Positions 2,749 through 37,025 are shown, counted from the first letter of the stretch. The stretch: 64,000 nt of DNA from Patescibacteria group bacterium (GCA_038065275.1 JBBTRH010000005.1:103195-167194); one strand, 5' to 3'. Notes: generated by a model not told the origin, from the letters alone. Numbers and translations: made by a program.

Positions 2749-2750
2749 AG

Positions 2751-3143: not shown

Positions 3144-3155
3144 AGGCGTGGGTGG

Positions 3156-4910: not shown

Positions 4911-4914
4911 GCGA

Positions 4915-5196: not shown

Positions 5197-5200
5197 ACGA

Positions 5201-8101: not shown

Positions 8102-8164
8102 AGGCCAGGTTCCCGAGCGTTTGTCCACATCGGGCCGCTTAGAAACGATTTTTGAAGCTGTTTG

Positions 8165-8173
8165 AATATAGCA
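8165..8173 (-). promoter_or_regulatory. extended -10 element TGCTATATT (minus strand), about 60 nt upstream of pilM
   Basis: Minus-strand TTTTGTGCTATATTCAAAC. Same TGcTAyAnT motif as four other promoters in the window. Confidence 0.4.
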
Positions 8174-8215
8174 CAAAAAGGGCTTGCCGTCAAAATTCGC
8201 TTCCTTCGGTTCAAA

Positions 8216-8314
8216 CCCCGTTAGAAGTGGGATAAATTTGTAGAAGCTGGTATCAAATAATCCGCTAAATTCCAAACAATTACAAAAAGAATGTTTCGGC
8301 CACTTCTAACGGGG
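8216..8314. repeat. Inverted-repeat module 3: 15-bp perfect arms CCCCGTTAGAAGTGG (8216..8230) and CCACTTCTAACGGGG (8300..8314) around a 69-bp AT-rich spacer
   Basis: Flanked on both sides by TCAAA. Here the module sits upstream of the pilM promoter, not abutting an ATG. Confidence 0.8.
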
Positions 8315-22607: not shown

Positions 22608-22796
22608 AGGCCCAGTGACTTGGCACGCGTACTGCCGTTTTGTTTTCCTTGTCATTTCGAGCCCATTTTCTTTTTTGTCATTTCGACCCCGAGCCGGGTC
22701 GAGGGGGAGAAATCTGCTCTGAGATAACAGAAGCGCAACATGAACAACAAATTCTACAGGGAGTGATTACGGTCTACAATATTTTTAGCAGTTGAA

Positions 22797-23099
22797 ATGA
22801 GATGCGAACGACAATATTTCGTTTATATGATGGCTAGCGTCAATCGTCGGGCCTTGTATATTGGCGTGACGAATAACCTCATCCGACGCGTGCTTGAACA
22901 CAAACGCGGTGACGTGGCTGGTTTTACGAAACAATATCATTGCGTTGTCTTAGCTTGGTACGATGTAACCGACGACGTGGCGGGAGCAATTGATACAGAA
23001 AAACGAATTAAAAAATGGCGTCGCTCGAAAAAGAATGCCTTAATTGAAACGATCAATCCAAACTGGCTCGACTTAACGTCACAAATACTAGACGGGTAG
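22797..23099 (+). CDS. GIY-YIG nuclease superfamily small protein (UPF0213/YhbQ-like)
   Basis: YFVYMMASVNRRALYIGVTNNLIRRVLEHKRG matches the GIY-YIG core. Confidence 0.7.
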   Translation: MRCERQYFVYMMASVNRRALYIGVTNNLIRRVLEHKRGDVAGFTKQYHCVVLAWYDVTDDVAGAIDTEKRIKKWRRSKKNALIETINPNWLDLTSQILDG

Positions 23100-23243
23100 G
23101 GGGGCAGATCTCTCGCTTCGCTACGGCTTCGCTCGAGATGACAGGAGGCGTGGTGCTCTGTTCGAGATGACAGGGGGGTTTGCGTTTTAGTTGATGGGGC
23201 TGGATTGACAAAACCAAAGCTTATGTATTAACCTTAGAAGACA

Positions 23244-23969
23244 ATGGTTTGGCGTTCCGCCCTAGGCGGATTAGCTCAGTTTTTTATGTTCCTCGTCACC
23301 AAGTTCATCGATCTCATCTTCCCGCCGCTGTGCGTCCACTGCGGCCGCGAGGGCGCTTGGCTGTGCCTAACCGCCCAGACCAGCCTCAACCATGAACAAC
23401 TGTTGATTGATCCCCTGCCCATTCGCGGCGTGGATCGTGTCATCACCCGCGGCTCGTACGACTGCGAACCGCTAGCCCAGCTGATCCAGAAATTGAAATA
23501 CCACTACTGGACCGGCCTGTCCGAAGTGTTGGTTGGCGTCCTGGAACCATGCCGTTCGGAATTGTCCGGGCTGGCCGACGCGGTCCTGGTCCCGGTCCCA
23601 TTACACCGGCGCCGCCAGCGCGAACGAGGGTTCAATCAATCGCTCCTCATCAGCCAGGCCCTGCGTCGCGTCACCGGCCGGCCAATCACACCCCTGCTGG
23701 CCTGCATGAAGTACACCGCTCCGCAGGCGCGCTTGTCGGCCGTTGCCCGGCTGACGAACATGATCGGCGCCTTCGGACGCGACCGGCGGGTTGCCAGCCA
23801 CCGTCGAACTACGCGCGGCGAGGCCCCGCCTGCTGGCGGTGGGTGGCCGTCATCTGTTATACTCGTCGATGACGTCATCACCACCGGATCGACCATGGCC
23901 GAGTGCGCGTCGGTTCTTCGACAACACGGTGTCCGCGACATTACGGCCGTGGCGCTGGCGAAAGGGTAA
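23244..23969 (+). CDS. comFC: competence protein ComFC (zinc ribbon plus phosphoribosyltransferase domain)
   Basis: CVHCG..WLC ribbon. PRTase motif VILVDDVITTGSTMAE. Confidence 0.75.
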   Translation: MVWRSALGGLAQFFMFLVTKFIDLIFPPLCVHCGREGAWLCLTAQTSLNHEQLLIDPLPIRGVDRVITRGSYDCEPLAQLIQKLKYHYWTGLSEVLVGVLEPCRSELSGLADAVLVPVPLHRRRQRERGFNQSLLISQALRRVTGRPITPLLACMKYTAPQARLSAVARLTNMIGAFGRDRRVASHRRTTRGEAPPAGGGWPSSVILVDDVITTGSTMAECASVLRQHGVRDITAVALAKG

Positions 23970-23979
23970 TGCCAAGAGC

Positions 23980-24000
23980 GGAGAGGTGGCCGAGTGGCTG
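23980..24000 (+). pseudogene. truncated tRNA-Ser 5' fragment (GGAGAGGTGGCCGAGTGGCTG) followed by hairpin CCGGTCATCCGACCGG
   Basis: Identical to the first 21 nt of the intact tRNA-Ser(GCT) at 24527. No 3' half. Confidence 0.5.
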
Positions 24001-24084
24001 TCCGGTCATCCGACCGGATAAAAGGGCAGAGTTGCGGTTTATGAAATATTGGCGGCTTGGTAATGGTAATAAAGTGATTCGCTT

Positions 24085-24360
24085 ATGACATATGTTTATT
24101 TCTTACTGCTAAATAATGGTACAATCTACAAGGGCGCGACCGAATCGGTTAAACACCGTCTCGTAGAACATCGCTCCGGCCAAGTCAAATCGACGAGAAG
24201 TTACCTACCAGTGGTATTACTCGGTTATGAAGCATACAAATTGTCCAGCGACGCTTATCGAAGAGAACGATTTCTTAAAACAACCGAAGGTCGCAGGTTA
24301 TTACGTCAACAGTACCGGGATATTATTCAGGAAGAAATTATCAAACTAAAAACAACCTAA
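24085..24360 (+). CDS. GIY-YIG nuclease superfamily small protein, second copy
   Basis: YVYFLLLNNGTIYKGATESVKHRLVEHRSG. Flanked by two copies of the tRNA-Ser 5' fragment. Confidence 0.6.
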   Translation: MTYVYFLLLNNGTIYKGATESVKHRLVEHRSGQVKSTRSYLPVVLLGYEAYKLSSDAYRRERFLKTTEGRRLLRQQYRDIIQEEIIKLKTT

Positions 24361-24375
24361 ATCCTATCCCAGAGC

Positions 24376-24395
24376 GGAGAGGTGGCCGAGTGGCT
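24376..24395 (+). pseudogene. second truncated tRNA-Ser 5' fragment
   Basis: CAGAGCGGAGAGGTGGCCGAGTGGCT repeated (compare 23974..24000). Confidence 0.5.
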
Positions 24396-24526
24396 ACCCG
24401 CCTACGCCTGCTGGCTTCGGCGGATCCATCCTATCTGATCTTTGTGAAAGGAGATGGAAAGGCGGCAGGTTGTCCCGCCCCCTTAACAACACACTAGGTA
24501 ACGAAGGCGGGATCCCGCACCGGTGC

Positions 24527-24617
24527 GGAGAGGTGGCCGAGTGGCTGAAGGCGGCAGGTTGCTAACCTGTTATAGGGGGTTAAACCCTTATCGCGAGTTC
24601 GAATCTCGCCCTCTCCG
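24527..24617 (+). tRNA. tRNA-Ser (anticodon GCT)
   Basis: Full cloverleaf read by eye. Acceptor GGAGAGG/CCTCTCC, anticodon loop TTGCTAA, long variable arm, T-loop TTCGAAT. No encoded CCA. Confidence 0.75.
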
Positions 24618-25148
24618 CTCTGGTGCGGTGACTAACCTGTTATACGGGGTTAAACCCGTCCGGTCATCCGACCGGACGTCAGGGGTTAATCCCTTGACGT
24701 ATCGTGGGTTCTCCGCCTCCGTACCGCTTCGGCGGCACTGCGGCGGATCCGTCCGAAGTTGCCGCAGTAACGGAGGCGGAAAATTCCACCCTCTCCGCCC
24801 TGGGATGGTAAAATACTAAATCCTAGTCCGGTCGGATGACCGGATCGCCCTCTCCGCTCTGGGCAATAACGTCAGTTTGCCGACCACTGCCGAGCACTCT
24901 CGGCGGGGCCCGCCCGAAGGCGGTGGGTGGTCTTCCGCCTACGTCTGTCGGACTTCGGCGGATCCGCCCTACTTGACCGAAGTGAGCGGAGGCGGAAAAA
25001 CGATGGTCTTGTCACCGCACCAGAGCGGAGGAGTGCCGGAGTCCCCGAACCACTAATGGGTTCGGGGCAGGGGTTGAACGGGGCAGTCTTGTCACCGCCT
25101 TTGGCGGAAGGTTGGCTGAGTGGTCTAAACACAATTCATGGGGAGAGC

Positions 25149-25235
25149 GGAGGCGTGCGAGAGTGGTTGAATCGGGCAGTCTTGAAAACTGCTAGACCCG
25201 CAAGGGTCTCGTAGGTTCGAATCCTACCGCCTCCG
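25149..25235 (+). tRNA. tRNA-Ser (anticodon TGA)
   Basis: Acceptor GGAGGCG/CGCCTCC, anticodon loop CTTGAAA, variable arm AGACCCGCAAGGGTCT, T-loop TTCGAAT. Confidence 0.65.
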
Positions 25236-25366
25236 CTCTCCTTGTGAGTCTTGCCCGGCGGAGCCGGGTCCGGCTCTGCCGGAAAAACCGGAATACCCGC
25301 AAAGGATATCGAAAATTCCCCGCCCGCCCTTCCTATCCCCCCCTTCTCGGTTCTCAGCCGCTTCGT

Positions 25367-25375
25367 GCTATACTA
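25367..25375 (+). promoter_or_regulatory. extended -10 element TGCTATACT
   Basis: 11 nt upstream of inverted-repeat module 4. Confidence 0.4.
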
Positions 25376-25385
25376 TCCTCATGGT

Positions 25386-25455
25386 CCCGTTAGACGGGGC
25401 CTCCGACAAGTTTTAAACAATATGCAAAAACTCGTTTCCTTAACCGTCTAACGGG
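25386..25455. repeat. Inverted-repeat module 4: 12-bp arms CCCGTTAGACGG (25386..25397) and CCGTCTAACGGG (25444..25455) around a 46-bp AT-rich spacer
   Basis: Right arm plus G abuts the ATG at 25457. Variant with GAC in place of GAA. Confidence 0.75.
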
Positions 25456-26040: not shown

Positions 26041-26069
26041 TAGACAGCGTCTTTTCCATATGCTACCAT
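26041..26069 (+). promoter_or_regulatory. promoter TAGACA-N17-TGcTACCAT upstream of tRNA-Arg
   Basis: -35 at 26041..26046. Extended -10 at 26061..26069. Confidence 0.4.
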
Positions 26070-26082
26070 GGCCGAGCATTAC

Positions 26083-26159
26083 GCGCCCGTAGCTCAGTTG
26101 GATAGAGTACAAGCTTGCGGAGCTTGGGGTCGGAGGTTCGAATCCTCCCGGGCGCACCA
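26083..26159 (+). tRNA. tRNA-Arg (anticodon reads GCG; CCA encoded)
   Basis: Aligns position by position to E. coli tRNA-Arg(ACG), except for anticodon loop TTGCGGA. Confidence 0.8.
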
Positions 26160-26219
26160 ACTGACGGCGAGTTATGAAAGGGCGTTGTGGCCGACCGTTC
26201 GCGGGTCTGGTTGTTTGGG

Positions 26220-26228
26220 TGCTACAAT
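26220..26228 (+). promoter_or_regulatory. extended -10 TGCTACAAT 7 nt before the recG ATG (leaderless-type)
   Basis: TGCTACAAT-acccgcc-ATG. The predicted TSS coincides with the A of the start codon. Confidence 0.4.
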
Positions 26229-26235
26229 ACCCGCC

Positions 26236-28395
26236 ATGTCCCTCACTACCCCGATTGCGAAACTGCCGCGCATGCAGTCGGCGATCGCCGGGAAATTCGC
26301 GCAACTCGGGTTATTGACGCTCCGCGACGCGTTGTTCTATTTCCCGTTCCGGCATGAAGATTGGCGGCAACGGTCGACCATCAACGCGTTAGCGGTCGGA
26401 CAGGAAGTGACGGTGGCCGGGATCGTCGCGACCGTCAAATCGCGGCGGGCTTGGCACCGGCGCGGAACGACGATTACCGATGTGACCATGACCGACGACC
26501 GCCCTGAACCATCCGGTCCGGGGCGGAGCGTCGCCAAGTTGCACGTCGTCTGGTTTAATCTGCCGTTCCTGGGAACTAGCCTGAAACCGGGCGATCGACT
26601 CTACGTATCGGGGACCGTGATCACCGCCAAGGACGGCCGGCTGCAGATGAACAATCCGGTTTACGAACGGCCCAGTGACGACCCGCTCCATCAGCGGTTG
26701 GTGCCGGTCTACCGCACGACTGACGGTTTATCGCAACGGCAGTTGCGGCTGGCGGTTAAACAGGCCGTCAGTTTGGCTAATGTCGTTCCGGACCCCCTGC
26801 CCGCCGCCGCGCTCTCGGAGCTTCCGGCGGAGCCAGGCGTAGCCTGGCAGGCCGGACCCAGCCTGCCCGGCTCTGCCGGGGCTTCGCCGGGCAACCTGCT
26901 CCCGTTGCCGGAGGCGCTAACACAGATTCATTTTCCCGATACCCCGGACCTCGCTCACCGCGCCGTGGAACGGCTGAAGTTCGACGAGCTGTTGTCATGG
27001 CATCTGCGGATGGTGGCGGCGAACAACGCTATCGGTCGGCATCAGGCGCCGGTCATCCCCTTCCACGAAACCGAAATCCGCTCGTTCGTCCAGCACCTCC
27101 CATATGCCTTAACCGATGACCAGCGGGTCGCCGCTTGGCAGGTGCTCCAGGACTTAGCCCAGCCCCGGCCGATGTCCCGTCTGGTGCAAGGAGACGTTGG
27201 TTCGGGGAAAACCGTCGTGGCCGCCCTGGTCGCCTACAACGCCGCCTTGAGCCACTTGCAGGTGGCGCTGGTGGCGCCGACCGTGGTCTTAGCTGAACAA
27301 CACCGGCAGACGTTCATCAGCATGCTCGGCAAACACGCCACGCGGCTGGCGCTGTTGACCGGACAAACGGCCACTATTTTTTCCGCCGGTACGGCCACGG
27401 ACGTTTCCCCCCGGGAGTTACGCGAGTCCCTGGCCCGCGGCACCGTCGATATCATCATCGGCACTCACGCCGTGCTCCAACCGGACGTAGTCTTCCATCG
27501 CTTGGGCTTGGTCATCGTCGACGAACAGCAACGTTTCGGCGTTGACCAGCGGCAAGCCTTACTGGCCGGCCGCGACGAGACGCCGCACTTTCTCAGCCTG
27601 ACCGCCACGCCCATCCCCCGCAGTTTTGCGCTGTGGCTGAGCGGCATCCTGTCGATCAGCACCATCGCCACTAAACCGCCCGGCCGGGCGCCGATCGTCT
27701 CCGCGGTGATTGGGCCGCCGGAACGAACTGCGGTTGATCGAACGATCGCCGCCACCGTCGCCCGCGGCGAACAGGTCTACGTCATCACACCGTTGATTGA
27801 GGAATCCGACAGTCTCGGCGTGCGAGCCGCGACCGGCGAACACCAACGGTTAACTGCGGTCCTGCCGCGCGCCCGCGTCGGCCTGCTCCACGGCGCCATG
27901 CCGGCGGACGACCGCCTGGCCGAATTGGAACGCTTCCGGCGCCGCGAGCTTGACGTGCTCGTCAGCACCACCGTCATCGAAGTCGGCGTTGATGTGCCGA
28001 ATGCCACGCTGATGGTGATCGAGGGCGCCGAACGGTTCGGCCTGGCCCAGCTCCACCAGCTTCGCGGCCGGGTTGGCCGTGGGACGGCGCCCAGCCGCTG
28101 TTTGTTCGTCACTGATCGCGACGCGCCCGAAGTCCGCCGACGGCTGGAGCGCGTAGCCACGATGACAGACGGTTTTGCCGTCGCCGAGCTCGACTGGCAG
28201 GAGCGCGGCGGCGGCGACCTGTACGGTCAGCGGCAGTCCGGCTTACCGGCTTGGCGGTTGGCTAGCTTGAATGACCGCCGGCTGTTCGAACGCGTCCGCG
28301 CTTATGTCAGCCGCCTGTCGGCTGAAGAGATGACGCAACTCGAACACGCCCTGGGCGAAGACGAACCAGCCACGGGCGCGTGGCATCCGGAGTAG
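26236..28395 (+). CDS. recG: ATP-dependent DNA helicase RecG
   Basis: Wedge domain. Helicase motifs GDVGSGKT, DEQQRFG, C-terminal HQLRGRVGRG. Start at MSLTTPIAK. The upstream part of the ORF overlaps tRNA-Arg and is not believed. Confidence 0.85.
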   Translation: MSLTTPIAKLPRMQSAIAGKFAQLGLLTLRDALFYFPFRHEDWRQRSTINALAVGQEVTVAGIVATVKSRRAWHRRGTTITDVTMTDDRPEPSGPGRSVAKLHVVWFNLPFLGTSLKPGDRLYVSGTVITAKDGRLQMNNPVYERPSDDPLHQRLVPVYRTTDGLSQRQLRLAVKQAVSLANVVPDPLPAAALSELPAEPGVAWQAGPSLPGSAGASPGNLLPLPEALTQIHFPDTPDLAHRAVERLKFDELLSWHLRMVAANNAIGRHQAPVIPFHETEIRSFVQHLPYALTDDQRVAAWQVLQDLAQPRPMSRLVQGDVGSGKTVVAALVAYNAALSHLQVALVAPTVVLAEQHRQTFISMLGKHATRLALLTGQTATIFSAGTATDVSPRELRESLARGTVDIIIGTHAVLQPDVVFHRLGLVIVDEQQRFGVDQRQALLAGRDETPHFLSLTATPIPRSFALWLSGILSISTIATKPPGRAPIVSAVIGPPERTAVDRTIAATVARGEQVYVITPLIEESDSLGVRAATGEHQRLTAVLPRARVGLLHGAMPADDRLAELERFRRRELDVLVSTTVIEVGVDVPNATLMVIEGAERFGLAQLHQLRGRVGRGTAPSRCLFVTDRDAPEVRRRLERVATMTDGFAVAELDWQERGGGDLYGQRQSGLPAWRLASLNDRRLFERVRAYVSRLSAEEMTQLEHALGEDEPATGAWHPE

Positions 28396-28397: not shown

Positions 28398-29942
28398 TCA
28401 CCGGCCGTTGGCGCAGGCCGTAGCGTAGGCCTGTTTGAACTCAGCCATATAATTCTTTGCGTTCGCCCGGATCTGCTCAACTTTTGATCGGTCTTTGAGG
28501 AACGTAGTTGAGCAGAAACTGTCTGATGCGCCGCCGAGACCCTGGTTGTACGCCGCGGCCGCCAGTAGAAGGTTCTTTTGGACGCAACTTTGATTAAGAA
28601 GTTGCTGGCCGTAGTAATCGGAGATCATCTGCACCTGGGCTTGCATCCCGGAAATTCCCGTACCCATTTTTCCGGCCGTTCGTTTATCCAGCCAGGCTTT
28701 GCACGACTGGCTGATATGCTTTCCGTCGCAATCATACACCTCTTCGTGGGTGCATGTAGCTGGATCGGTGACGGTGGCGGTCCGACATCCCGGAGGCAAC
28801 CCGCCTGGATTGACTTTTTTTAACACCTCAACTAAAGTCGAAACTTTAAATTGTCCGAGTCCATATCCCGGCCCGGGCTGACCGTTGTCGGTCTTCCCCT
28901 CCGGGCCGGAGAATGGTTGTCCCTGCGTCGTTTTCGGACTCTCAATGGCAATGATTGCCTTGATGGCAAAAGCATCGAGATCTTTGTCCTTGCGCGCTAC
29001 GTACTGGATCACTGCGTTCAGATCGATGCATCCATAGTCAACGGCGCCGTTCTCTCCAGCTCCCGCAGTCGGACCGCTACAAGCTTTACTCGGTTCACCG
29101 GCAACTAGTTTTTTCGTGCAACGCGGTAGTTCACCGACTGAGGTGAGTAAATTATTAAGGTAGCTGGCTAATTCCTTGTCAATATAGCTCAACCCAATGC
29201 CGCGGAAGCTGGTTAGTCGCGGATTGATGGTGTTCAGCAGGACGACGGATACTAGGGCGATCAGCACGCCGATGATGGCGTCGTTGATGATCCCGCGCGC
29301 GTCGTTAATCCGGCCCGGATTTCCCGCCGCCGCGACCCATTTGATCCCGCCGTAGACGACCATCACCGTCGCCAGGATCCCGACCGCCCAGACGAAAGCG
29401 ACGAAAATAACCCTGATGTACTCGGCGATGGTGGTGTCGGAAATGTTCCACACCCCCTCTAAAAGTCCGGGGATAGTCAACTCGGGCTTGAAGGTCAGCG
29501 CGTCGGACGCCGCCGAGGCGGCCGGCGGTGTGGTAGGCTGGGTCGTCGGCGCGGTGGCTGGACAGGTTCCGCCGATGGTAAAAAAATAGCCGGCGTTCCG
29601 ACGTTCGTCCGTTTCACATTGAGCGCGGCTGGCCGCAAAACAACTATACGACGGACTGTATGTGACGCAGCGTCCAGTTTCTCCTTGCCGCCGCCACTCA
29701 ACGCATGTTCCGGCGAAGAACTTCCCCGCCGCGTACACGTCAATTCCGCCCCAGGCCTGCTTACAGGCATCAAAGGTCAGATCAACGCAGTCCGGACTGC
29801 CGACGTAGCCCGGCGGATTCAGACAGGCGCCCGTGACGCTTTGGGCCTGCACCTCGCGCGGCGGACGGAATCCGCCGGCGGCGACGGACAGGCCCGCCGT
29901 CACGGCTAGGACCAAACAGACAACCCGCGGGTAACGTGGCAT
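28398..29942 (-). CDS. secreted fusion protein: Cys-rich N-domain, VirB2/TrbC-pilin-like hydrophobic hairpin (..AAGNPG..), C-terminal lytic transglycosylase (SLT) domain
   Basis: YIRVIFVAFVWAVGILATVMVVYGGIKWVAAAGNPGRINDARGIINDAIIGVLIALVSVVLLNTINP. SLT motifs IAIES, GLGQF, AAYNQG. Convergent with recG (2-nt gap). Confidence 0.5.
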   Translation of the reverse strand: MPRYPRVVCLVLAVTAGLSVAAGGFRPPREVQAQSVTGACLNPPGYVGSPDCVDLTFDACKQAWGGIDVYAAGKFFAGTCVEWRRQGETGRCVTYSPSYSCFAASRAQCETDERRNAGYFFTIGGTCPATAPTTQPTTPPAASAASDALTFKPELTIPGLLEGVWNISDTTIAEYIRVIFVAFVWAVGILATVMVVYGGIKWVAAAGNPGRINDARGIINDAIIGVLIALVSVVLLNTINPRLTSFRGIGLSYIDKELASYLNNLLTSVGELPRCTKKLVAGEPSKACSGPTAGAGENGAVDYGCIDLNAVIQYVARKDKDLDAFAIKAIIAIESPKTTQGQPFSGPEGKTDNGQPGPGYGLGQFKVSTLVEVLKKVNPGGLPPGCRTATVTDPATCTHEEVYDCDGKHISQSCKAWLDKRTAGKMGTGISGMQAQVQMISDYYGQQLLNQSCVQKNLLLAAAAYNQGLGGASDSFCSTTFLKDRSKVEQIRANAKNYMAEFKQAYATACANGR

Positions 29943-29945
29943 GCC

Positions 29946-31196
29946 TTAGCGCAGTTGAACGCGCTGAATTGTGCCGGTGGCGGCGTCGGTGAAGAACAAA
30001 CTGCTCTCGTCGGCGGCCACTCGCAGGTTGGCGGCGCTGAAACGCTGGTTCTTATTCTGGTCAACCGGCCGGGCGACCAGCCCGACCGTGCCGGTGCGGA
30101 GATCGACTCGATAAATGTTGTCCGGGATGCCCCGCGAGAGTTCCGGCTGGGGTCCCGAGCCGGGATTGTAATAGTACGGCACCGCGCAATAAACCGACGA
30201 CCCGCTCGAGGCGAAAGCGCACTTGTCGGCGCTGGTGTCGAGGCCGAGGTCGAGGGAGTTCGTCCCTAAGCTTTCCGGCGAGCCGTTCATCAGATACAGG
30301 TGCGGATTGTCGTTGGTCAGCGGACTGTAGGCGCTGTACAGCAGTTTGCGGCCGTCCGGCGACCAGGCGGGAGTGAACCCGCGACCGGCGACGTTGACCG
30401 AGGGAAAGTTCTCGTTGTTGGCGCCCAAGAAAATGATTTCCTGCTGGTCGCCGCTGGTCGACTTGGCGTAGCTGGCGATAATCTGGTTGTTCGGCGACCA
30501 GGCGACCGTCACTTTATCGGCGTTCCCGCCGAGATGCTCGGCCGTCTGCGACTGCGTGCCGTCCGGCTTGCTGACCACCAGCCACTGGTTTTCTTCATCG
30601 CGCGGGTCGAGGTACTTGGCGGCGATCTGGTCGGACTGCGGCGAGAACGAAAAGTTGTTCAATTCCGACGGCAGGGTGGTCTGCTTCTTGGCGGTGAAAT
30701 CGTAGAGGACTTTCGATCCGTCCGGAAAACCGAGAATGGCCTGGTTGCCGTTCGGCGCCCAGTCGACCGACCGGACATCGGGATAGGGGTCGGTCGTCAG
30801 CGGCGTTTTTGTCGACCCGTCCGGGCTGATCTTGTAGAACAATCCCGAGGCGCGGTCATAAAACTGGAGGTCGCCGTTGTCCGGGTTGACCGCCAGCCCC
30901 CCGGCCGGACCGGTCGTCACCGGACTGGCGAAGGTGGCGCCGCCGTTGGCCACATTGCTCGGTTCGGATATCGGCGCGTTCACGGCCGGCAGAGCGTTGA
31001 CGTTCCGCGCCGGCCGGACGCGGTTGGCGTTGCCATTCTGTGGGCTGGGCAGGCCGTTGGTGATGCCGCCGGGGCGGTTGGTGGTTACCGGCGTGCCGCC
31101 CGGCCGGAAAAAGACGTACCAAATCAGGAAAAAGAATCCAACCACAACCAGGGCGAAGGCGGTGATGAAGAGAGATTTTTTTAGGCGATCGTTCAT
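29946..31196 (-). CDS. TolB-like beta-propeller protein, N-terminal membrane anchor
   Basis: Repeated WAPNG/WSPDG propeller-blade motifs. Probable start MNDRLKKSLFITAF (ATG 31196). Confidence 0.55.
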   Translation of the reverse strand: MNDRLKKSLFITAFALVVVGFFFLIWYVFFRPGGTPVTTNRPGGITNGLPSPQNGNANRVRPARNVNALPAVNAPISEPSNVANGGATFASPVTTGPAGGLAVNPDNGDLQFYDRASGLFYKISPDGSTKTPLTTDPYPDVRSVDWAPNGNQAILGFPDGSKVLYDFTAKKQTTLPSELNNFSFSPQSDQIAAKYLDPRDEENQWLVVSKPDGTQSQTAEHLGGNADKVTVAWSPNNQIIASYAKSTSGDQQEIIFLGANNENFPSVNVAGRGFTPAWSPDGRKLLYSAYSPLTNDNPHLYLMNGSPESLGTNSLDLGLDTSADKCAFASSGSSVYCAVPYYYNPGSGPQPELSRGIPDNIYRVDLRTGTVGLVARPVDQNKNQRFSAANLRVAADESSLFFTDAATGTIQRVQLR

Positions 31197-31204
31197 TGGA
31201 GAAT

Positions 31205-32218
31205 TCAATAAATCTTCTCGTGCGGACAAGTTTTACCCGGACAGCAAATATTGGGTATAAAATCTATTCCAGTTTGGGACTTTTCCGGTTTGGTTTTCGG
31301 GCCAACCAGGTAGCACTGGGGGTCAACATTTTCACCTGCCGATATATAACTACCAGCACACCACGGCCAGACTCCATCACGAGCTGGTGCAATGACACCG
31401 CAGTATCCCCGTAGCTGAGCCACGAACCAAAAATTAGTAGCTTGACTAACTTCCCATGTTCCACCTTCTTCCTTGGCTAAGACGTCCGTACACCCTTGAT
31501 GCGGTTTATAGTTGTTTTTTGAATCCATCTTAAGGGAACAAATATTTGTGTGTTCAGCGAAACCCGCGGCACCGCCCCGCGAACATGTCGTGCCCATGCA
31601 ATAATCGTCAACTTCCTTATCTTTACCGTCAACCTTTACTTTTACCGTACCGATTTTTTTCACCTCACCGCAGGTTATTCTTGGTTCGCTGGGGCAGATT
31701 ACCAGGGCGCGGACACCTTCGAAGTATTTTACCGAAATGGACGTTAGCCCTGGGATAGCTAACTGCGTAAGTTTCGGGTTGATAATGTTCAACAGCACGA
31801 CCGACACCAAAGCGATCAGCACCCCGATGACCGCGTTGTCAATAATGTCTCGCGCCTCTTTGATCTGACCGGGATTGCCGGCGGCGGACACCCAACGTAT
31901 CCCGCCGTACATGACCATCACCACCGCCACGATGCCGACCACCCAGACGAAGTAGATGTAGATCGCCCGGATGTAACGCGTCAGCAGGGTGTCGTCGGCG
32001 TTCTGCTCGCCGGTGAATACGACCGGGATGGGAATTTCCGGCGTGAACTTTTCGGATTTATCCGCCGCGGCCGGTTCCGCCGCGGCCGCACTGGGTTTGC
32101 TTTGGGCTTGCACCTCGCGCGGCGAACGGAATCCGAAGATGGCGACGGACAGGCCTGCCAGCATGGTCAGAAACACCGCTAGAGTGATGGCCGCGTTTCT
32201 TACGTGCGGAGCAGTCAT
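31205..32218 (-). CDS. VirB2/TrbC-pilin-like protein, paralog of 28398..29942, with Cys-rich C-terminal domain
   Basis: YIRAIYIYFVWVVGIVAVVMVMYGGIRWVSAAGNPGQIKEARDIIDNAVIGVLIALVSVVLLNIINP. Its leader FRSPREVQAQS and a 45-bp stretch of DNA are near-identical to the paralog. Confidence 0.45.
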   Translation of the reverse strand: MTAPHVRNAAITLAVFLTMLAGLSVAIFGFRSPREVQAQSKPSAAAAEPAAADKSEKFTPEIPIPVVFTGEQNADDTLLTRYIRAIYIYFVWVVGIVAVVMVMYGGIRWVSAAGNPGQIKEARDIIDNAVIGVLIALVSVVLLNIINPKLTQLAIPGLTSISVKYFEGVRALVICPSEPRITCGEVKKIGTVKVKVDGKDKEVDDYCMGTTCSRGGAAGFAEHTNICSLKMDSKNNYKPHQGCTDVLAKEEGGTWEVSQATNFWFVAQLRGYCGVIAPARDGVWPWCAGSYISAGENVDPQCYLVGPKTKPEKSQTGIDFIPNICCPGKTCPHEKIY

Positions 32219-32273
32219 CCGAGGCAAGCGTTGATCATGACGGTAGATGGTGGGCATGGTCGGTACGAGAAGT

Positions 32274-34526
32274 TTACTGGCCGGTGAAGAAATTGACAAT
32301 AGCTCCGATCGTCTTCAGTCCGAGTTTAGCGGCTTCAACGGGATTGGCGATAAGCCAAAGAAAGACAAAAATGAAGCCGTAAATGACTCCGGTCCAGGCG
32401 GCGACAATCATGAATTTCATGTGCCGCACGTAGTCGATCGGGTCGCTGATGCTGTAGCCGGGGATGAGTTGGACCGATACGCTCGTGTCCGGTTGATTGG
32501 CGGCGCTGTCCGGAGGCGGACGGGCGGTGATTTCTTTCGTGAACATATTGCCCATCATGTTTCCGCCCATCCACCGCAGGAGGTAGAGGCCGACGACCAC
32601 CGGACCGGAGAAAAGAAACAGGTCGGTCATGGACAGGGCTTGATCCTCGGCCACTTCTTGAGCGATTTGCCAGCCCCGTTTGTAGATTTTTTCGAGTCGT
32701 TCTTTTTCCGACTCATACTGCACCGGAATCTGCTTCGCCTTCTGCCCCGCTTGGATCGCCTGCCGCTGGCGGGCGCGGTCGGCCGCTTCAAATTGCGCCC
32801 GCCGCTGGGCGGCGAGTTTCTGCGACCGGAGTTCCTGGGCCATCATCTCCGGTGATTGTCCTTCCGCGTCTCCGGCCGCCTCCGGCGCGGTAGTGTCTTG
32901 AAATTCCGACGACTCTTCGGCGCTCGGCGCGGTGCGCTCCGTCGGGGTGGCGGCCGGAGTCGGGGCCGGCGCGGTGAACGGTTGATATTCTTCATCGACT
33001 CCCTCGAGCCGGCCGCCGCCGACCATTTCAGGCGGTCGAGGTTGGTCAGTCGGCACCGGTTGTTGTGCAATTGGTGTCGGAACCTTGGCTTCCGCCGCTG
33101 GAGCTTCCGGACTTGGGGTTTGGACGGGAAGTGTACTGCTAACTGGCACTCCTTCGACCGTGGCTTCAAACTCGGGCGGCGCGGCCGGCACGCTCGGCCG
33201 GTAGGCTTGGTGGTCGGGGTGTGACGGCGGGGGCGCGGACGGCGGCGGTGACGTCGTCTGGGCCGGTTGGCCGATTTGATCTGCCGGTAATCCCGGCGGC
33301 CCGGATGGCGCAGGTTCAGCGCCGCCGGCTATCGGTTCGACGCGCCTGGGAGAAATTGCCGGGTGAACACCGGTCTGGGCGAAAGCGGGCGATGGGGTCT
33401 GGTCAACCGGAGTCGTAGCTGGCGCCGGCCCACTGCCTCGAGGCGTCGCCCGCCGCGGACGTCGTCCATAACGCGGTGACGCTGATGGTGTTGCCACTGG
33501 CTGGCCGGTGGTGGGCGTCGGTTCGGACACTCCCGTCGGAGTAGCGCCGGTTGGAGATGGCCCTCCCTCCTCCTCTCGCCCCTCGCGCCGTCGCCAAAGC
33601 GGCTTTGGCGCGTCGGCGACCTCGGGCAGGAGGGGTGTAATACCTCGCCCATCTTCTGGCGGGGGGGGTGTGATGCCTTGCCCCTTTTCTGGCGGGGGGA
33701 GCGTGACGGGTGACTGTGGTGTACTTTCTTGTATTCCTGGAACCAGTAGCACTGTAGCCGGAGCCGCGCCGGCCGTGTCGGCTGAGACGTCGATACTGGG
33801 AACCTCGGCATTGATTCCTGGCGGAGTTTCTCCGACATCGGGTATTGTCACCGTCGGCGGAATCGAGGGCGGTACCGGACTGACCGGCGGAACTTCACTG
33901 CGCGGTTGAACCGGCAGTGTTGGAGTCACCGCGGTTGGCCCGGCGGACGATGCGGCCGGCGGTCCAATCGGCGGTGTAGAAACTCGCGGCGGGATTGGCG
34001 GAGCTGACACTCGGGCCGCTGGCGGCGCAGTATCGGTCACCGGCGGCGTGACTAAACGCTCAACCGCTTCCACGGCTTCGAGATGCCGATCCATCAACCG
34101 GTGCTGTTCGTTGGCCGGCAGATGCAACGATCTCGTCAGGTCACTGCTGGGGATGACCGGATCGAGCGCGACGACGCTGTGGCCGCTTGGTTCAAGGCGG
34201 CCGCGGTACACCCGGCCATTGCGCTTGACGTAGATCGGCCGGCCGCTCGAGCGCGCGGCGGCCAGCAGGCGCGCCGTGGCGATGCCGGTGTCATTGACAA
34301 TCCGGCCGTCGTTATCGAGCGTCACAAAATAGCCGGACACGATGTCCGGTTCATCGCCCCGGCCGGGAGCGACGACCACGCCGATATCCGTCTCGCCGAT
34401 GGCCGGATTCGGCTCGTCAGGCGGCGCGGTGGCGGGCTTGTCAGTGCGCTTGCCGCGCACCGCGGCTGAATCGTTTACCGCGGAGTCGGTTGTTTGGTCG
34501 AGTTCATCATCGACAACGGTGGCCAT
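32274..34526 (-). CDS. proline-rich membrane protein (750 aa), C-terminal TM helices; possible VirB10-like scaffold
   Basis: Long P/T/A-rich low-complexity region, then a coiled coil and three C-terminal TM segments. Confidence 0.4.
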   Translation of the reverse strand: MATVVDDELDQTTDSAVNDSAAVRGKRTDKPATAPPDEPNPAIGETDIGVVVAPGRGDEPDIVSGYFVTLDNDGRIVNDTGIATARLLAAARSSGRPIYVKRNGRVYRGRLEPSGHSVVALDPVIPSSDLTRSLHLPANEQHRLMDRHLEAVEAVERLVTPPVTDTAPPAARVSAPPIPPRVSTPPIGPPAASSAGPTAVTPTLPVQPRSEVPPVSPVPPSIPPTVTIPDVGETPPGINAEVPSIDVSADTAGAAPATVLLVPGIQESTPQSPVTLPPPEKGQGITPPPPEDGRGITPLLPEVADAPKPLWRRREGREEEGGPSPTGATPTGVSEPTPTTGQPVATPSASPRYGRRPRRATPRGSGPAPATTPVDQTPSPAFAQTGVHPAISPRRVEPIAGGAEPAPSGPPGLPADQIGQPAQTTSPPPSAPPPSHPDHQAYRPSVPAAPPEFEATVEGVPVSSTLPVQTPSPEAPAAEAKVPTPIAQQPVPTDQPRPPEMVGGGRLEGVDEEYQPFTAPAPTPAATPTERTAPSAEESSEFQDTTAPEAAGDAEGQSPEMMAQELRSQKLAAQRRAQFEAADRARQRQAIQAGQKAKQIPVQYESEKERLEKIYKRGWQIAQEVAEDQALSMTDLFLFSGPVVVGLYLLRWMGGNMMGNMFTKEITARPPPDSAANQPDTSVSVQLIPGYSISDPIDYVRHMKFMIVAAWTGVIYGFIFVFLWLIANPVEAAKLGLKTIGAIVNFFTGQ

Positions 34527-34535
34527 AGGAAACCC

Positions 34536-35093
34536 CTATTTCCACACCGCCGCGCTGACTTTCCAATCGGCCCCAACTTTGACCAGGTCTATTAATAAGT
34601 CTTTGGTTTGGACGGTCGCGGCCGTCCCGACCGTGACCGTTTGCTGGGTGGCCACGACCACCGACGCGGCCGCGGTTGTTTGCTTCAGCACGTTGAACAC
34701 CAGCGCCCGGGTGACGGTGCCGTGGTACTCCTTCGGCGGCGGGGCTGATCGCGCCTGGGCTATCTGCGCGCCGAGGAAATCGCCGTAGGCGGCGGTGGCG
34801 TACGCTTGGGCGTCAGTCAGATTGCGACCGCCGTTCTGATTCGATCCACTGCCGTACCGTTCGGTGAAGTTCCGCGCCACGTAGATTATGGCTTGACGAT
34901 CCGGGGTATAGGGCGAGCGGTTGGCGTTGGCGGGCGCGTCGGTCGGGCGATTGGTGACCGGCGGCGCGGTATTAGTCACCCGGTAGACGGCGTTCTGGAG
35001 ACGCGGGCTCCGGGTGACGCTGAGGATGATAACCAGGGCCAGGCCGATCATGACGACCAGGGCCGAGGCGAAAAAGATGATCCGGCGTCCCAT
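34536..35093 (-). CDS. bitopic membrane protein, hypothetical (VirB8-position)
   Basis: 185 aa. N-terminal TM. Sits directly downstream of the VirB4 genes. Confidence 0.35.
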   Translation of the reverse strand: MGRRIIFFASALVVMIGLALVIILSVTRSPRLQNAVYRVTNTAPPVTNRPTDAPANANRSPYTPDRQAIIYVARNFTERYGSGSNQNGGRNLTDAQAYATAAYGDFLGAQIAQARSAPPPKEYHGTVTRALVFNVLKQTTAAASVVVATQQTVTVGTAATVQTKDLLIDLVKVGADWKVSAAVWK

Positions 35094-35096
35094 CGG

Positions 35097-37025
35097 TTAG
35101 GCGTTTAACGGCGGAGCTGAGTCCATCACCGTCCCGGCGCCGGTGGCGACGCCGGCGCTGGCCGACTGCTCGAACTCCTTCTTCGCCGCTTCGATCTCGA
35201 GCAGCTGCTGCGGGTTGGTCGTCACGATCTGGTCCTCGGCAATCGAGGCCACGATTTTGATGGCGGCGTGCTTGCTGCCGGCGAAGAAAATCCCCTCCCC
35301 CAGGCCGGATTCGAGGAGCAAGTAGCGTTCCTGTTGGGTCAGGAGGAAAGTCTTGGTGACGATGTCGATGGCGGCCGGCGACTGTTTCATCAGCAGGGTC
35401 AAGGCCGAGTTGTTGATGATCGCCTGGCCGTAGGGGCTGAGCAAAAAGTCGTTGACGTCCTGGGTAATCGTGGTCACGCCGAGGTAGTACTTGCGCGAAC
35501 GTTTGACCAGGCCGTAGACGAACTTGGCCGAGTCTTCGTGCTGCATCAGCCACCAGGCTTCGTCAATCACCAGGATGCGGCGTTTCAAACTTGACCGGGC
35601 CAGGTTCCAGATGTAGGAGATGATGATTGACATGCCGATCGGCCTCAGCTCGTCCTCGAGGTCGCGGACGGAGAAGACCACCAATTGGTTGTTCAGCTCG
35701 ATGTTGGTCGGGCTGTTGAACAAGCCGGAGAAGGTGCCCTCGGTGTACTTCTTCAGCCGTTCCACCAGGCTGTCCGCGCCGGTCATGCCGCTCAAGACTT
35801 CCTGGAAATCAGCCATCACCGGCGTTTCGACGTTGGCCAGGTCGGCCTCGGGAGTGATGTCTTTCTTGGCGTATGTTTCCAGCAGGGCGCGATCAACGAT
35901 TGAATCTTCTTCATGGGTCAAGGCGCCGAGCATCAGGCGAAACATCGACTTGAGCGTGATGACCGCCGAGCGGATGATGTCGGCCGTCGTTTCGTCGCTA
36001 CTAATCGCCCGCGGCAAGTCGAAGGGGTTGATTTTGCTCTCAGCGTTGAGCGAGACATTGATGTAGGTGCCGCCGACCGCGTCGGACAGATACTTGTATT
36101 CGTGCTCCGGGTCGATGACGATGATGTCGGTGCCGAACATCATCGCCCGGATGATTTCCAGCTTGACGGCGTACGACTTGCCCGAACCGGCGGTGGCAAA
36201 AACGGTGTAGTTCGGGTTCTGCAAGCTGAAGCGGTCAAACAGGATCAGCGAGTTGTTATGCCGGTTGATGCCGTAGAGAATGCCGCTGTCCGAGGACAGG
36301 TCGGCGGAGATGAAGGGGAAGCTCGAAGCGATCGGCGAAGAGTTCATGTTGAACGTCACCTGGAGCTGGTCCACCCCGACCGGCAGAGTTGAGGCGAATC
36401 CTTGTTCGGTCTGGAAAAAGGCGCGCTTGGAAAACACCAGTCGCGAACCGAACAGCCCTTCGATCCGGCCGGTCAGGTTCTTCAGCTCCTCCACGGAATC
36501 GGCGTAGAGCGTGACGTACAGGGCGAACTGGAAGAATTTTTCCGTCCCTTGGGTCAGGTCGTCGCGTAGCTTCTCGATGTCCCGCAGGGCAGTCTCGCGC
36601 ATCGGGTCGCGCGGGGCGCCTTTTTCGCTGTCGGTAATCAACTGGGCTTCGAGGGCGCCGACTTTGTTCTTCAGCTGTTTCAGGATGATGTCCGACGGCA
36701 CCGGATAGAAGAACATGGCGATGTCCAGCGGGGTGTTGTAGTTGATGATCGGCGCAAACCAGCCGACGGAAATGTAGCGCGGGTAGGTGACCACAAACAG
36801 CGTCTGCAGGTATTTGCCGTTCAAACGGAGGAACGTCGGATCAACCTTCATCGCCGCCGGCGCGATCAAGTCGCGGACGGTGACCACGCCCTGGCGGTAA
36901 ACGCGCTCCGCGGTAATCAGTTCGCGCTCGTCCGACGGGCGGCTGACAGTCGGAGTCGGCGGCGGAGCGCCGGCCGCCTGATCGCGGAGGATGTCCGGTC
37001 GGGAGAGGTTAACGTTGGTGGGCAT
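35097..37025 (-). CDS. VirB4/TrbE-family T4SS ATPase, C-terminal ATPase portion
   Basis: Walker A FATAGSGKS. Walker B ILVIDEAWWL. 642 aa. Confidence 0.75.
   Translation of the reverse strand: MPTNVNLSRPDILRDQAAGAPPPTPTVSRPSDERELITAERVYRQGVVTVRDLIAPAAMKVDPTFLRLNGKYLQTLFVVTYPRYISVGWFAPIINYNTPLDIAMFFYPVPSDIILKQLKNKVGALEAQLITDSEKGAPRDPMRETALRDIEKLRDDLTQGTEKFFQFALYVTLYADSVEELKNLTGRIEGLFGSRLVFSKRAFFQTEQGFASTLPVGVDQLQVTFNMNSSPIASSFPFISADLSSDSGILYGINRHNNSLILFDRFSLQNPNYTVFATAGSGKSYAVKLEIIRAMMFGTDIIVIDPEHEYKYLSDAVGGTYINVSLNAESKINPFDLPRAISSDETTADIIRSAVITLKSMFRLMLGALTHEEDSIVDRALLETYAKKDITPEADLANVETPVMADFQEVLSGMTGADSLVERLKKYTEGTFSGLFNSPTNIELNNQLVVFSVRDLEDELRPIGMSIIISYIWNLARSSLKRRILVIDEAWWLMQHEDSAKFVYGLVKRSRKYYLGVTTITQDVNDFLLSPYGQAIINNSALTLLMKQSPAAIDIVTKTFLLTQQERYLLLESGLGEGIFFAGSKHAAIKIVASIAEDQIVTTNPQQLLEIEAAKKEFEQSASAGVATGAGTVMDSAPPLNA

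Follow-up and report, generated by a model that had tools for sequence, protein, structure and literature searches.

Few sequences in biology are as strongly conserved as transfer RNA (tRNA) genes, and this conservation renders them ideal as targets of selfish DNA. To our knowledge, the phage protein SegB is the only nuclease studied so far that exploits their T-loop motif. The SegB of phage T4, whose gene lies in the tRNA cluster of the phage, is a free-standing GIY-YIG homing endonuclease that requires the T-loop DNA GGTTCRANTCC for recognition and leaves 2-nucleotide (nt) 3' overhangs (PMC2330249). In phage T6, SegB breaks together with UvsX/UvsY recombination lead to an unstable, ladder-like amplification of segments with segB and a full tRNA gene; SegB homologues co-localize with tRNAs across phages, and SegB(short) is a C-terminal truncation (PMC13096335). 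By analogy with I-TevI, DNA binding by SegB would be expected to reside in its C-terminal part. Here we describe a locus in a 64,000-nt stretch of a Patescibacteria group bacterium genome (GCA_038065275.1, JBBTRH010000005.1:103195-167194; the window) in which intact, interrupted and truncated tRNA-Ser genes are combined with DNA hairpins and a small GIY-YIG open reading frame (ORF #2), and we compare it with related loci of the candidate phyla radiation (CPR).

The locus is probably a tRNA-Ser stack that was repeatedly invaded by a small selfish GIY-YIG element, a chromosomal and CPR-specific analogue of SegB. Older serine tRNA genes are wrapped in layers around working replacement copies. The proposed element would have a minimal nuclease of ~90 amino acids (aa) as its sole gene and a pair of 18-nt DNA hairpins as its signature. 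According to both ARAGORN and Rfam, the window holds three tRNA genes, all on the + strand: Ser(GCT) at 24527-24618, Ser(TGA) at 25149-25236 and Arg(GCG) at 26083-26159. The genes flanking the tRNA-Ser locus are ordinary chromosomal ones (LemA, HtpX, Clp ATPase, ComF and RecG). Alignment of the intact genes to the region revealed three nested layers of tRNA-Ser(GCT), copy A around copy B around copy C, with ORF #2 positioned between the 5' piece of copy A and copy B:

23978..24000, + strand: 5' piece of copy A, the outermost tRNA-Ser(GCT), from the acceptor 5' strand to the D-loop end; same as the intact gene, tRNA +1 at 23980
24001..24018, + strand: hairpin h1 (TCCGG-TCATCCGA-CCGGA), at the D-loop breakpoint of copy A
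24085..24360, + strand: GIY-YIG ORF #2, 91 aa, a bare UPF0213/Slx1-like nuclease domain; 40.6% GC versus 59.4% for the window
24374..24395, + strand: piece 1 of copy B, a second tRNA-Ser(GCT) allele, from the acceptor 5' strand to the D-loop; tRNA +1 at 24376
24396..24457, + strand: insert Hc, a GC-rich hairpin element with CTTCGGCGGATCC, at the D-loop site of copy B
24458..24472, + strand: piece 2 of copy B, D-stem 3' strand and anticodon stem 5' strand up to anticodon G34
24473..24524, + strand: start of the anticodon-loop insert of copy B (159 nt in total), with a hairpin (24473-24512) and leader TCCCGCACCGGT (24513-24524)
24527..24618, + strand: copy C, the intact tRNA-Ser(GCT), housed in the anticodon loop of copy B
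24619..24631, + strand: trailer TCTGGTGCGGTGA, end of the anticodon-loop insert of copy B
24632..24659, + strand: piece 3 of copy B, from anticodon C35 to the variable arm; compensatory change relative to copy C
24660..24675, + strand: second h1 (CCGGTCATCCGACCGG), followed by a duplicate variable-arm hairpin (24678-24700); interrupts copy B at the boundary of variable arm and T-stem
24701..24711, + strand: piece 4 of copy B, T-stem 5' strand and then T-loop TTC
24712..24780, + strand: insert Ha, a 69-nt three-way hairpin element (CCGCCTCCGT...ACGGAGGCGG), in the T-loop of copy B at GGTTC|AAAT
24781..24799, + strand: piece 5 of copy B, AAAT followed by the T-stem 3' strand and acceptor 3' strand
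24827..24844, + strand: hairpin h2 (TCCGG-TCGGATGA-CCGGA), preceding the 3' piece of copy A
24845..24858, + strand: 3' piece of copy A, T-stem 3' strand and acceptor 3' strand, pairing with 23978-23986
24933..24997, + strand: insert Hb, third member of the Ha/Hc family
23967-23986/24849-24868, 24366-24382/24790-24806, 24515-24533/24610-24628 and 25142-25155/25228-25241: leader/trailer inverted repeats

The first-pass annotation had described this region as a probable scar field of partial tRNA-Ser copies left by serial mobile-element insertion, with repeated breakpoints at the anticodon loop. Its individual components were recovered: both intact tRNA-Ser genes, the 26-nt direct repeats of the tRNA-Ser 5' end that bracket ORF #2 (AGAGCGGAGAGGTGGCCGAGTGGCT(G/A), 23975-24000 and 24371-24396, 96% identical), the variable-arm duplicates (24627-24657, 90% identical to 24557-24587, plus a third copy at 24682-24695) and the hairpin repeats in both orientations. 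The breakpoints do lie in tRNA loops, and residue of serial mobile DNA at tRNA-Ser remains an apt description. The pieces are ordered, colinear and nested rather than scattered: the 5' piece at 24376 has its 3' counterpart at 24781-24799, and the 5' piece at 23978 has its counterpart at 24845-24858.

Copy B is interrupted four times, in the D-loop, in the anticodon between G34 and C35, at the boundary of variable arm and T-stem, and in the T-loop. Its pieces are colinear and together span the whole tRNA gene (24376-24395, 24458-24472, 24632-24659, 24701-24711 and 24781-24799). Upon removal of the four inserts in silico, ARAGORN called a 94-nt tRNA-Ser(gct). Rebuilding copy B with the second variable-arm hairpin gave no tRNA call; the first arm alone works. 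The differences between copies B and C in the variable arm and T-stem are compensatory, and copy B is thus a different allele rather than a decayed duplicate. A 20-nt inverted repeat with 100% identity links the trailer of copy C and the adjoining tRNA bases (24613-24632) to 25011-25030, which includes leader TCACCGCACCAGA (25012-25024) of a Ser(TGA)-type 5' half, indicating exchange between the two Ser loci.

Within the window, h2 (24827-24844), when inverted, exactly matches both h1 at 24001-24018 (over 18 nt) and the second h1 copy at 24659-24677 (over 19 nt). The sequence CCGGTCATCCGACCGG occurs three times, at 24002 (+), 24660 (+) and 24828 (-), versus an expectation of 0.14, and a fourth match with 2 mismatches lies elsewhere in the window. 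A search for three short elements across the 64 kilobases (kb) found them confined to the tRNA-Ser locus. Hc and Ha belong to a separate, locus-specific hairpin family, yet they are placed exactly at the D-loop and T-loop sites used by the h1/h2 family; the Ha hairpin (24712-24780) has a DNA-fold z-score of -5.8.

ORF #2 matches the Pfam GIY-YIG family PF01541 (E=3.6e-8; 34 bits versus a cut-off of 22.6), with the domain covering residues 2-70; no family match was obtained in NCBIfam or PHROG. An alignment of 28 family members contains 25 invariant columns, and Y5, Y15, G17, R25, H29 and E68 are among the invariant residues. The family profile matches the PDB structures 1zg2 (BH0048; E=5.9e-10) and 1ywl (EF2693; E=1.1e-8). 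E. coli YhbQ is a stand-alone protein of this UPF0213/Slx1-like kind. ORF #2 has the features of this group, namely a length within ~85-110 aa, the lack of an auxiliary domain and similarity to BH0048/EF2693. The UPF0213/stand-alone Slx1-like branch has been described as the minimal form of GIY-YIG proteins, and a prokaryotic Slx1-like domain is also found fused to TrmH (PMC1564403). The CPR proteins share the minimal architecture and sequence similarity with BH0048 and EF2693; the latter, however, are uncharacterized structural-genomics targets with no reported linkage to tRNA genes, whereas a tRNA setting and the hairpin motif define the CPR clade. Close homologues of ORF #2 (~100, with 54-73% identity) are all small, all from Patescibacteria/CPR and often located on very short contigs; truncated and pseudogenized copies occur among the relatives.

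We analyzed 80 related loci, all taken from GTDB species representatives. In 64 of these, at most 60 nt separate the ORF from a tRNA on its strand; of the remaining 16 loci, 4 stop right after the ORF. Most commonly, the ORF is found directly upstream of tRNA-Ser with any anticodon; it also occurs at Lys, Arg, Met and Gln tRNAs, and in the mirror placement it directly follows a Ser, Ile, Glu, Val, Gly or Lys tRNA. Several genomes hold paralogues at different tRNAs. An intact tRNA copy is retained in nearly every locus, and the far side of the ORF typically carries a partial copy of the same tRNA. In the main and commoner variant (V1), the order is truncated 5' copy with hairpins, ORF, intact tRNA. 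The outer 5' copy of V1 starts at tRNA +1 and consists of contiguous blocks that are mostly 100% identical to the inner gene (e.g., 1-13, 14-34 and 35-71 in locus L019, or 1-21, 22-35 and 36-74 in L058), ending 7 to 11 nt past the hairpin pair, at the stem end of the arm that hosts the pair. In the mirror variant (V2), an intact tRNA and the ORF are followed by an arm with hairpins and the 3' remainder. Remnants on both sides, nested as in the window, were observed in L027, L028 and L062. In L005 (CAZKOU010000055.1, 1850-2420), the T-loop of a type-II tRNA with anticodon GTA is split by h1, h2 and the ORF; a clean T-arm and 3' end follow downstream, and then a second hairpin-bearing remainder. 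At L040 (1-700), two tandem GIY-YIG ORFs are each followed by a T-arm with h1-h2 and by a different acceptor 3' remainder; two elements are stacked there head to tail.

The hairpin pair of this family has a clear signature. Both members are 18-nt hairpins, with h1 reading N5-TCATNCGA-N5' and h2 reading N5-TCGNATGA-N5', and the canonical T-loop form is GGTT-CG-[h1]-CG-[h2]-CG-AATCC. The pair usually sits in the truncated outer copy, splitting the T-loop as GGTTCG|AATCC (44 aligned cases); its other sites are CG in the anticodon loops of Ser(CGA) and Arg(CCG), the anticodon loop of Ser(TGA), and the D-loop of Met, Lys and Arg at GGTTA|GAGC. Of the 80 loci, 46 contain an h1-h2 pair; h1 invariably precedes h2 (45:0), and the strand of the T-loop context matches that of the ORF in 36/39. 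In a gap-free alignment of 37 T-loop units, 100% of h1 positions and 98.5% of h2 positions are paired, and 10 of the 14 hairpin base pairs vary on both sides; the covariation score is 0.427, versus 0.163 in shuffles (0/500) and at most 0.137 in slid controls. G-U pairs are nearly absent (3 in ~518 cells of the hairpin stems), suggesting that complementarity is maintained at the level of DNA, as a folded single strand or cruciform, rather than by an RNA-only constraint. Together with the host T-arm, h1 and h2 fold into a three-way junction of perfect hairpins on the host T-stem, with a z-score of about -6. A kissing-loop interaction between h1 and h2 was considered and rejected, as their variable loop bases do not covary (e.g., ATCC with GAAT).

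The interrupted-loop class appears to depend on the protein. The nearest protein neighbor has the same class (T, anticodon or D) in 38 of 45 cases, versus 24.5 +/- 3.5 expected (0/5,000 shuffles), and one D-loop protein clade covers Met, Lys and Arg tRNAs. This is evidence that protein lineages track the loop that is hit and that the protein chooses the site.

These data bear on an intron-like interpretation, in which the hairpins and perhaps the ORF inserts would be removed from the transcript, by an endonuclease plus ligase or without religation, so that copy B would be functional. Archaea are known for multi-intron, split and permuted tRNA genes with bulge-helix-bulge introns, e.g., in Thermoproteales. 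As in those genes, the inserts studied here are short, occupy D-, anticodon, variable and T-loops, often without the loss of a base, and seemingly move between tRNA genes, and the colinear exons of copy B give a valid tRNA once the inserts are removed. The exon blocks of outer copies are moreover still 100% identical to the inner gene, and L005 has a split tRNA only. The first-pass annotation had weighed its own reading against intact, intron-containing tRNAs; copy B is indeed complete apart from its four inserts, but we saw no evidence of splicing. Neither EndA nor a ligase was found among the ORFs scanned in the 64-kb window, which is all of the genome that is available. CPR bacteria do carry many non-intron insertions at stem-loop tips of rRNA genes, some of which encode GIY-YIG ORFs; tRNA is not mentioned in that report (0 occurrences) (PMC11270868). 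Those insertions share with the present elements the host group, the preference for stem-loop tips of structured-RNA genes, the occurrence of GIY-YIG ORFs without group I/II features and the abundance of short, ORF-less copies, whereas no hairpin-pair motif, gene duplication or nesting was reported for them (PMC11270868). They also differ in interrupting the sole functional gene copy and in being thought to be removed from the RNA.

Several results make such removal improbable here. Most outer copies are truncated, lacking the acceptor 3' strand or the whole 5' part, and cannot give a tRNA, while an uninterrupted copy, needless if inserts were spliced, is kept in nearly every locus. The Watson-Crick-only covariation of the stems fits a DNA-level rather than RNA-level constraint. 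The T-arm unit with h1 and h2 is a three-way junction that lacks the 3-nt bulges flanking a 4-base-pair (bp) helix of a bulge-helix-bulge. Rfam detected only tRNAs at the gathering threshold, and a permissive scan of 23900-25450 gave the two tRNA-Ser genes and an antisense artefact, with no group I/II intron or ribozyme. The bacterial host and the linked nuclease ORF further distinguish these loci from archaeal tRNA introns.

Searching with the T-loop hairpin motif alone identified at least 120 metagenome contigs. The matches listed comprise 128 motif instances, or ~117 after collapsing overlapping cut-outs of multi-motif contigs, and the following numbers refer to them. In about 50 of the 128, a family ORF lies no more than 700 nt away and is in every case encoded on the same strand. 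Most of the others are accompanied, within ~60 nt, by an intact tRNA on the same strand, which usually terminates just before the motif; these ORF-less motifs are found at Arg, Ile, Leu, Pro, Val, Glu, Cys, Asn, Ala, Tyr and other tRNAs. Their layout is an intact tRNA, 0-50 nt of spacer, and then GG-TTCG-h1-CG-h2-CG-AATC with the T-stem 3' strand and acceptor 3' strand. This 3' remainder is identical to the neighboring tRNA in 29/57 cases and represents a diverged allele of the same type in the other 28/57. Upstream of the intact gene, a matching 5' acceptor strand was detected in 8 of the 28 diverged cases, versus ~1 expected. Diverged remainders and upstream 5' acceptor strands imply that, as in the window, the intact gene has often come in from elsewhere and taken the place of an older resident gene.

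A phage origin of the element was rejected. The T-loop hairpin motif had 0 matches in the viral contigs scanned, and a protein search of 50,697 phage records returned one weak match, with 36% identity.

The same surveys speak to the integrase mechanism put forward in the first-pass annotation. In the form considered here, phage-like elements or integrative and conjugative elements with a tyrosine integrase would have used the anticodon and T-loops of tRNA-Ser as attachment (att) sites and then decayed, leaving an integration/excision scar field. The breakpoints in the anticodon loop and T-loop are classical integrase sublocations; integration sites in tRNA and transfer-messenger RNA genes were reportedly surveyed by K. 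P. Williams in 2002. The V2 layout of intact tRNA, ORF and 3' remainder formally resembles attL/attR, and a cluster resembling a type IV secretion system (T4SS) lies downstream in the window. More generally, tRNA-targeting integrative elements likewise keep or restore an intact tRNA beside a displaced partial copy and can stack serially. However, a Pfam scan of the 20 main ORFs in the 64-kb window identified type IV pilus, T4SS-like, KsgA and major facilitator superfamily proteins but no integrase or recombinase, and the ORFs adjoining the tRNA-Ser locus have no recombinase domain. The inserts are small (~0.04-0.85 kb, with insert bodies of 159-844 nt), and nested 5' and 3' pieces with whole tRNAs, including foreign alleles, in their loops are not the product of reciprocal site-specific recombination, which would leave the intact gene, the element and a single displaced repeat. 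The mirror layout of 5' copy, ORF and tRNA is the commoner one, the hairpin pair occurs at just one of the two junctions, and the motif is absent from the viral contigs. When relatives were examined for elements at the tRNA, as the annotation had proposed, a recurrent partner was indeed found in more than 200 related loci (the 80 loci plus the 128 listed instances), but this partner is the GIY-YIG gene with its hairpin pair. We therefore regard integrase-mediated insertion as very improbable.

The position of ORF #2 and the inner tRNAs between an exact h1 and its exact inverted copy h2 raises the alternative of a hairpin-guided transposon. Here, h1 and h2 would be the cis-acting ends, an adjacent pair would be an ORF-less miniature, the GIY-YIG protein would act on folded single-stranded DNA to insert at CG or in loops, and the tRNA copies would be by-products. 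A second GIY-YIG ORF in the window is similarly bracketed by a mirror-image, related motif:

22651..23171, + strand: neighboring related unit with GIY-YIG ORF #1 (22797-23099; 100 aa; 44.6% GC), of a different subfamily

ORF #1 is preceded by two copies of GTCATTTCGA (22651, 22677) and followed by two copies of the near reverse complement TCGAGATGAC (23133, 23162). The window has no further matches to these bracketing motifs, whose core is similar to h1/h2 but one base longer. Outside them lies a direct repeat of 11 nt, GGATTGACAAA (22576, 23202). Both ORFs are compositionally foreign (41% and 45% GC versus 59%).

A transposon would also fit the three CG dinucleotides that bound the pair in the T-loop form, as 2-bp target duplications would, and the 2-nt overhangs made by the GIY-YIG enzyme SegB (PMC2330249). 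The Watson-Crick-only, covarying stems, the independent insertion of single hairpins at other loops and the frequency of ORF-less copies are likewise in line with it. IS200/IS605 elements and their miniatures, REP/RAYT systems and integron attC sites similarly rely on short hairpins whose structure is kept over stem sequence, insert site-specifically and have ORF-less miniatures that outnumber ORF-bearing copies. They differ in their enzymes: no HUH (Y1) transposase, TnpB or integron integrase was seen among the ORFs scanned in the window, and the GIY-YIG protein is the only ORF recurrently linked to the hairpins. Further differences are the restriction of the present targets to tRNA-gene loops and the long target-gene duplications that accompany the inserts. 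We know of no strand-transfer or ligation activity of a GIY-YIG domain, which counts against transposition. Most relatives have the ORF outside an adjacent h1-h2 pair rather than between the hairpins, the D-loop forms have no CG repeats, and transposition alone leaves the long tRNA duplications and imported alleles unaccounted for. On balance, we consider a transposon of this type unlikely.

Comparison of closely related strains revealed further rearrangement. Other assemblies of the same organism break inside the tRNA-Ser locus. In a contig of strain L002, which is 99.5% identical, ComF and copy A are separated by a further 5' layer made up of a 5' piece, insert Hc, a piece of anticodon arm, a hairpin and a variant leader. 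This layer has its own point differences and is thus no assembly chimera; it would be the expected product of ectopic repair of a broken 5' fragment templated on another. At its far end, L002 has a Ser-like 3' half that is better preserved than in the window. In a second pair of strains (L133, 700-1060, and L134, 560-1060), the flanks are 99.7% identical and the sequences differ at tRNA-Thr(GGT). L134 has a hairpin-interrupted 5' copy, a GIY-YIG ORF and the intact tRNA-Thr, whereas L133 has no ORF and instead a tandem ladder of 3 partial tRNA-Thr copies (~100 nt) followed by the same intact tRNA. The partial copies each end in the T-loop, and hairpins of other kinds (CACCGCCGATGGCGGGG, CCCCGCATCTGCGGGG) are lost stepwise along the ladder.

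Such polymorphism also bears on whether the nuclease might be domesticated, with an accessory function at tRNA loci in gene repair or amplification, in processing of the operon transcript or in defense against integrating elements, the fragments being side-effects. The protein is well conserved and has kept its catalytic-type residues, and it is always encoded on the tRNA strand and abutting a tRNA, so that the two are probably co-transcribed. SegB-driven amplification can benefit the phage (PMC13096335), and the fusion of an Slx1-like domain to TrmH hints at RNA-related roles (PMC1564403). The distribution, however, is patchy, with several paralogues per genome at different tRNAs; copies are truncated or pseudogenized; presence and absence vary between strains; the base composition is foreign; ORF-less relics are common; and contigs often break at these loci. 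This combination is typical of selfish elements and not of housekeeping genes, making domestication quite improbable.

We thus return to a SegB-like selfish element as the favored reading. The CPR proteins and SegB share the GIY-YIG catalytic domain and the placement of the gene among or next to tRNA genes of many isotypes. The SegB recognition motif is the very sequence that is split by the CPR hairpin pair, and insert Ha of the window lies within it. SegB breaks combined with homologous recombination lead to co-conversion and to ladder-like duplications with a full tRNA and the nuclease gene. As the CPR elements share target gene class, breakpoint motif and duplication products with SegB, we propose for them a similar mechanism of breakage and recombination. 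The differences are also substantial. SegB is more than twice as long, whereas the CPR protein is a bare domain that has no C-terminal DNA-binding module; SegB is phage-borne, whereas the CPR element is chromosomal; and SegB loci lack a conserved pair of hairpins, the nesting of genes within genes and the regular occurrence of a truncated copy next to an intact tRNA.

According to the proposed mechanism, the small nuclease would break the DNA of tRNA-gene loops, by analogy to SegB at the T-loop motif, and the breakpoints at this motif would reflect cleavage. Homologous recombination with element copies that bear partial or complete tRNA homology would then yield insertion-duplications. A Campbell-type crossover in the long homology beside the hairpins would produce either V1 or V2, with the hairpins landing in the truncated copy, and selection would spare only products with one clean tRNA. 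The nested and ladder-like arrays could build up as this process is repeated, as the repeats recombine in ectopic repair and as foreign tRNA alleles are imported. Because they move together with the element and are positioned exactly so as to disrupt the loop motif of the dead copy, the hairpins may immunize the site or serve as a binding site for the nuclease.

A number of points weigh against this interpretation. Cleavage by the family protein is predicted from its sequence, and the protein has none of the DNA-binding extension that gives SegB and I-TevI their specificity. The T-loop of the inner tRNA is unmodified, and a T-loop cutter should attack its own locus as well as all other tRNA genes. 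Conserved hairpin loops and covarying stems imply a structure-dependent role that simple homing does not predict. In L019 and L058, outer copies are interrupted by single hairpins with no flanking bases lost; this precision is more suggestive of targeted insertion, or of introns, than of scars left by repair. Position +1 of the tRNA, a boundary set at the RNA level, is often the exact start of an outer copy, and some cassette-borne tRNAs sit between long inverted flanks. The correlation between protein lineage and loop class could partly stem from shared ancestry of the loci. Finally, the 2.9-kb contig of L005 holds no intact copy of its split tRNA; this locus could be a primary insertion product, a dead locus or a sign of insert removal. 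These observations keep both hairpin-guided transposition and intron-like removal alive. They also allow for the more tentative idea, unlikely in our view, that the hairpins and the minimal Slx1-like nuclease constitute an unrecognized class of mobile DNA. A structure-specific nuclease would then recognize both folded DNA hairpins and the cloverleaf-forming DNA of tRNA genes; insertion would be confined to the loops of these genes, and a replacement tRNA would be brought along or regenerated, driving the horizontal replacement of tRNA alleles across CPR bacteria. In a variant of this idea, the hairpin inserts may be removed from transcripts, with interrupted bacterial tRNA genes being functional.

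Our literature search yielded no description of tRNA-nested GIY-YIG elements in bacteria or of this hairpin pair, although absence there is no proof. Under the favored reading, the element is a tRNA-targeting, free-standing GIY-YIG selfish element of distinctive architecture that has apparently not been described before. The window exposes a chromosomal family in CPR/Patescibacteria that extends to hundreds of contigs and to tRNA genes of at least 20 amino-acid isotypes. Such a tRNA-nested family explains assembly breaks at tRNA loci in CPR genomes and predicts frequent horizontal replacement of tRNA alleles. A 90-aa nuclease with 18-nt hairpins is also a compact candidate system for structure-guided DNA targeting. 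For genome annotation, the loci call for caution, as the fragments resemble att scars or pseudogenes and tRNA finders silently pass over interrupted copies.

The Ser(TGA) side of the locus is a more degraded version of the layering on the GCT side:

25000..25024, + strand: anticodon-arm piece of an outer Ser(TGA) copy (ACGATGGTCTTG), broken after anticodon TG and followed by leader TCACCGCACCAGA
25025..25091, + strand: 5' half of a different tRNA-Ser(TGA) allele (D-stem CCG/CGG versus CGA/TCG), broken after anticodon TG
25092..25130, + strand: hairpin TCACCGCCTTTGGCGG, overlapping a 5' fragment of a further type-II tRNA (GCGGAAGGTTGGCTGAGTGGTCTAAAC)
25149..25236, + strand: intact tRNA-Ser(TGA), with flanks that lengthen the acceptor stem by 7 bp
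25244..25328, + strand: degenerate outer Ser(TGA)-like 3' half (GTGAGTCTTG, a 29-nt hairpin, AAAAACC..., a variable-arm-like stretch and a T/acceptor-like remnant)

At least two TGA-like 5' halves had been claimed here. The one at 25025-25091 is real and contains a 26-nt hairpin insert in its D-loop (25042-25067), while the other is only a 12-nt anticodon-arm piece (25000-25011). The sequence GTCTTGTCACCGC is present twice, at 25006-25018 and 25086-25098. In the degenerate 3' half, the perfect 29-nt hairpin (25254-25282) sits in the anticodon loop.

In every tRNA-Ser layer of the window, leader and trailer prolong the acceptor stem, forming inverted repeats of 14-20 nt in total that reach ~5-11 bp past the stem; the tRNA-Arg gene, taken as a control, has no stem-extending flanks. 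Among the relatives, 221 of 247 tRNAs have a stem extension of 0-1 bp, while ~8% have 5-15 perfect bp, mostly cassette-borne Ser, Gln and Lys tRNAs. The stem-extended tRNAs look as if placed at the tip of a long DNA hairpin. We further observed a 10-nt direct repeat, CTAAATCCTA (24357-24366 and 24816-24825), that brackets the copy-B unit (~450 nt) and overlaps the stop codon of ORF #2; it is possibly a target duplication from insertion of this unit.

Among the records L006-L083 with the CPR-type gene and motif, many metagenome-assembled genomes (TPA_asm binchicken assemblies) bear the title "uncultured Gammaproteobacteria bacterium"; gene content and the names of homologues suggest that these titles are placeholders or errors. 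On the minus strand of the window, permissive Rfam matches to "Plastid-psbl-rps4 3'UTR" were obtained at 24562-24617 (42 bits) and 25189-25235 (21 bits), versus a gathering threshold of 68, presumably as an artefact of a model that holds antisense tRNA. Type IV pilus proteins (PilC-, PilT-, PilB- and PilM-like) are encoded at the window start (295-8275), and two proteins with T4SS-pilin domains plus a TraG/VirB4-like ATPase are encoded downstream of RecG (28398-37025); these clusters are typical CPR surface machinery. The 775-aa RecG ORF as listed (26068-28395) begins within tRNA-Arg (26083-26159), and its true start therefore lies farther downstream.

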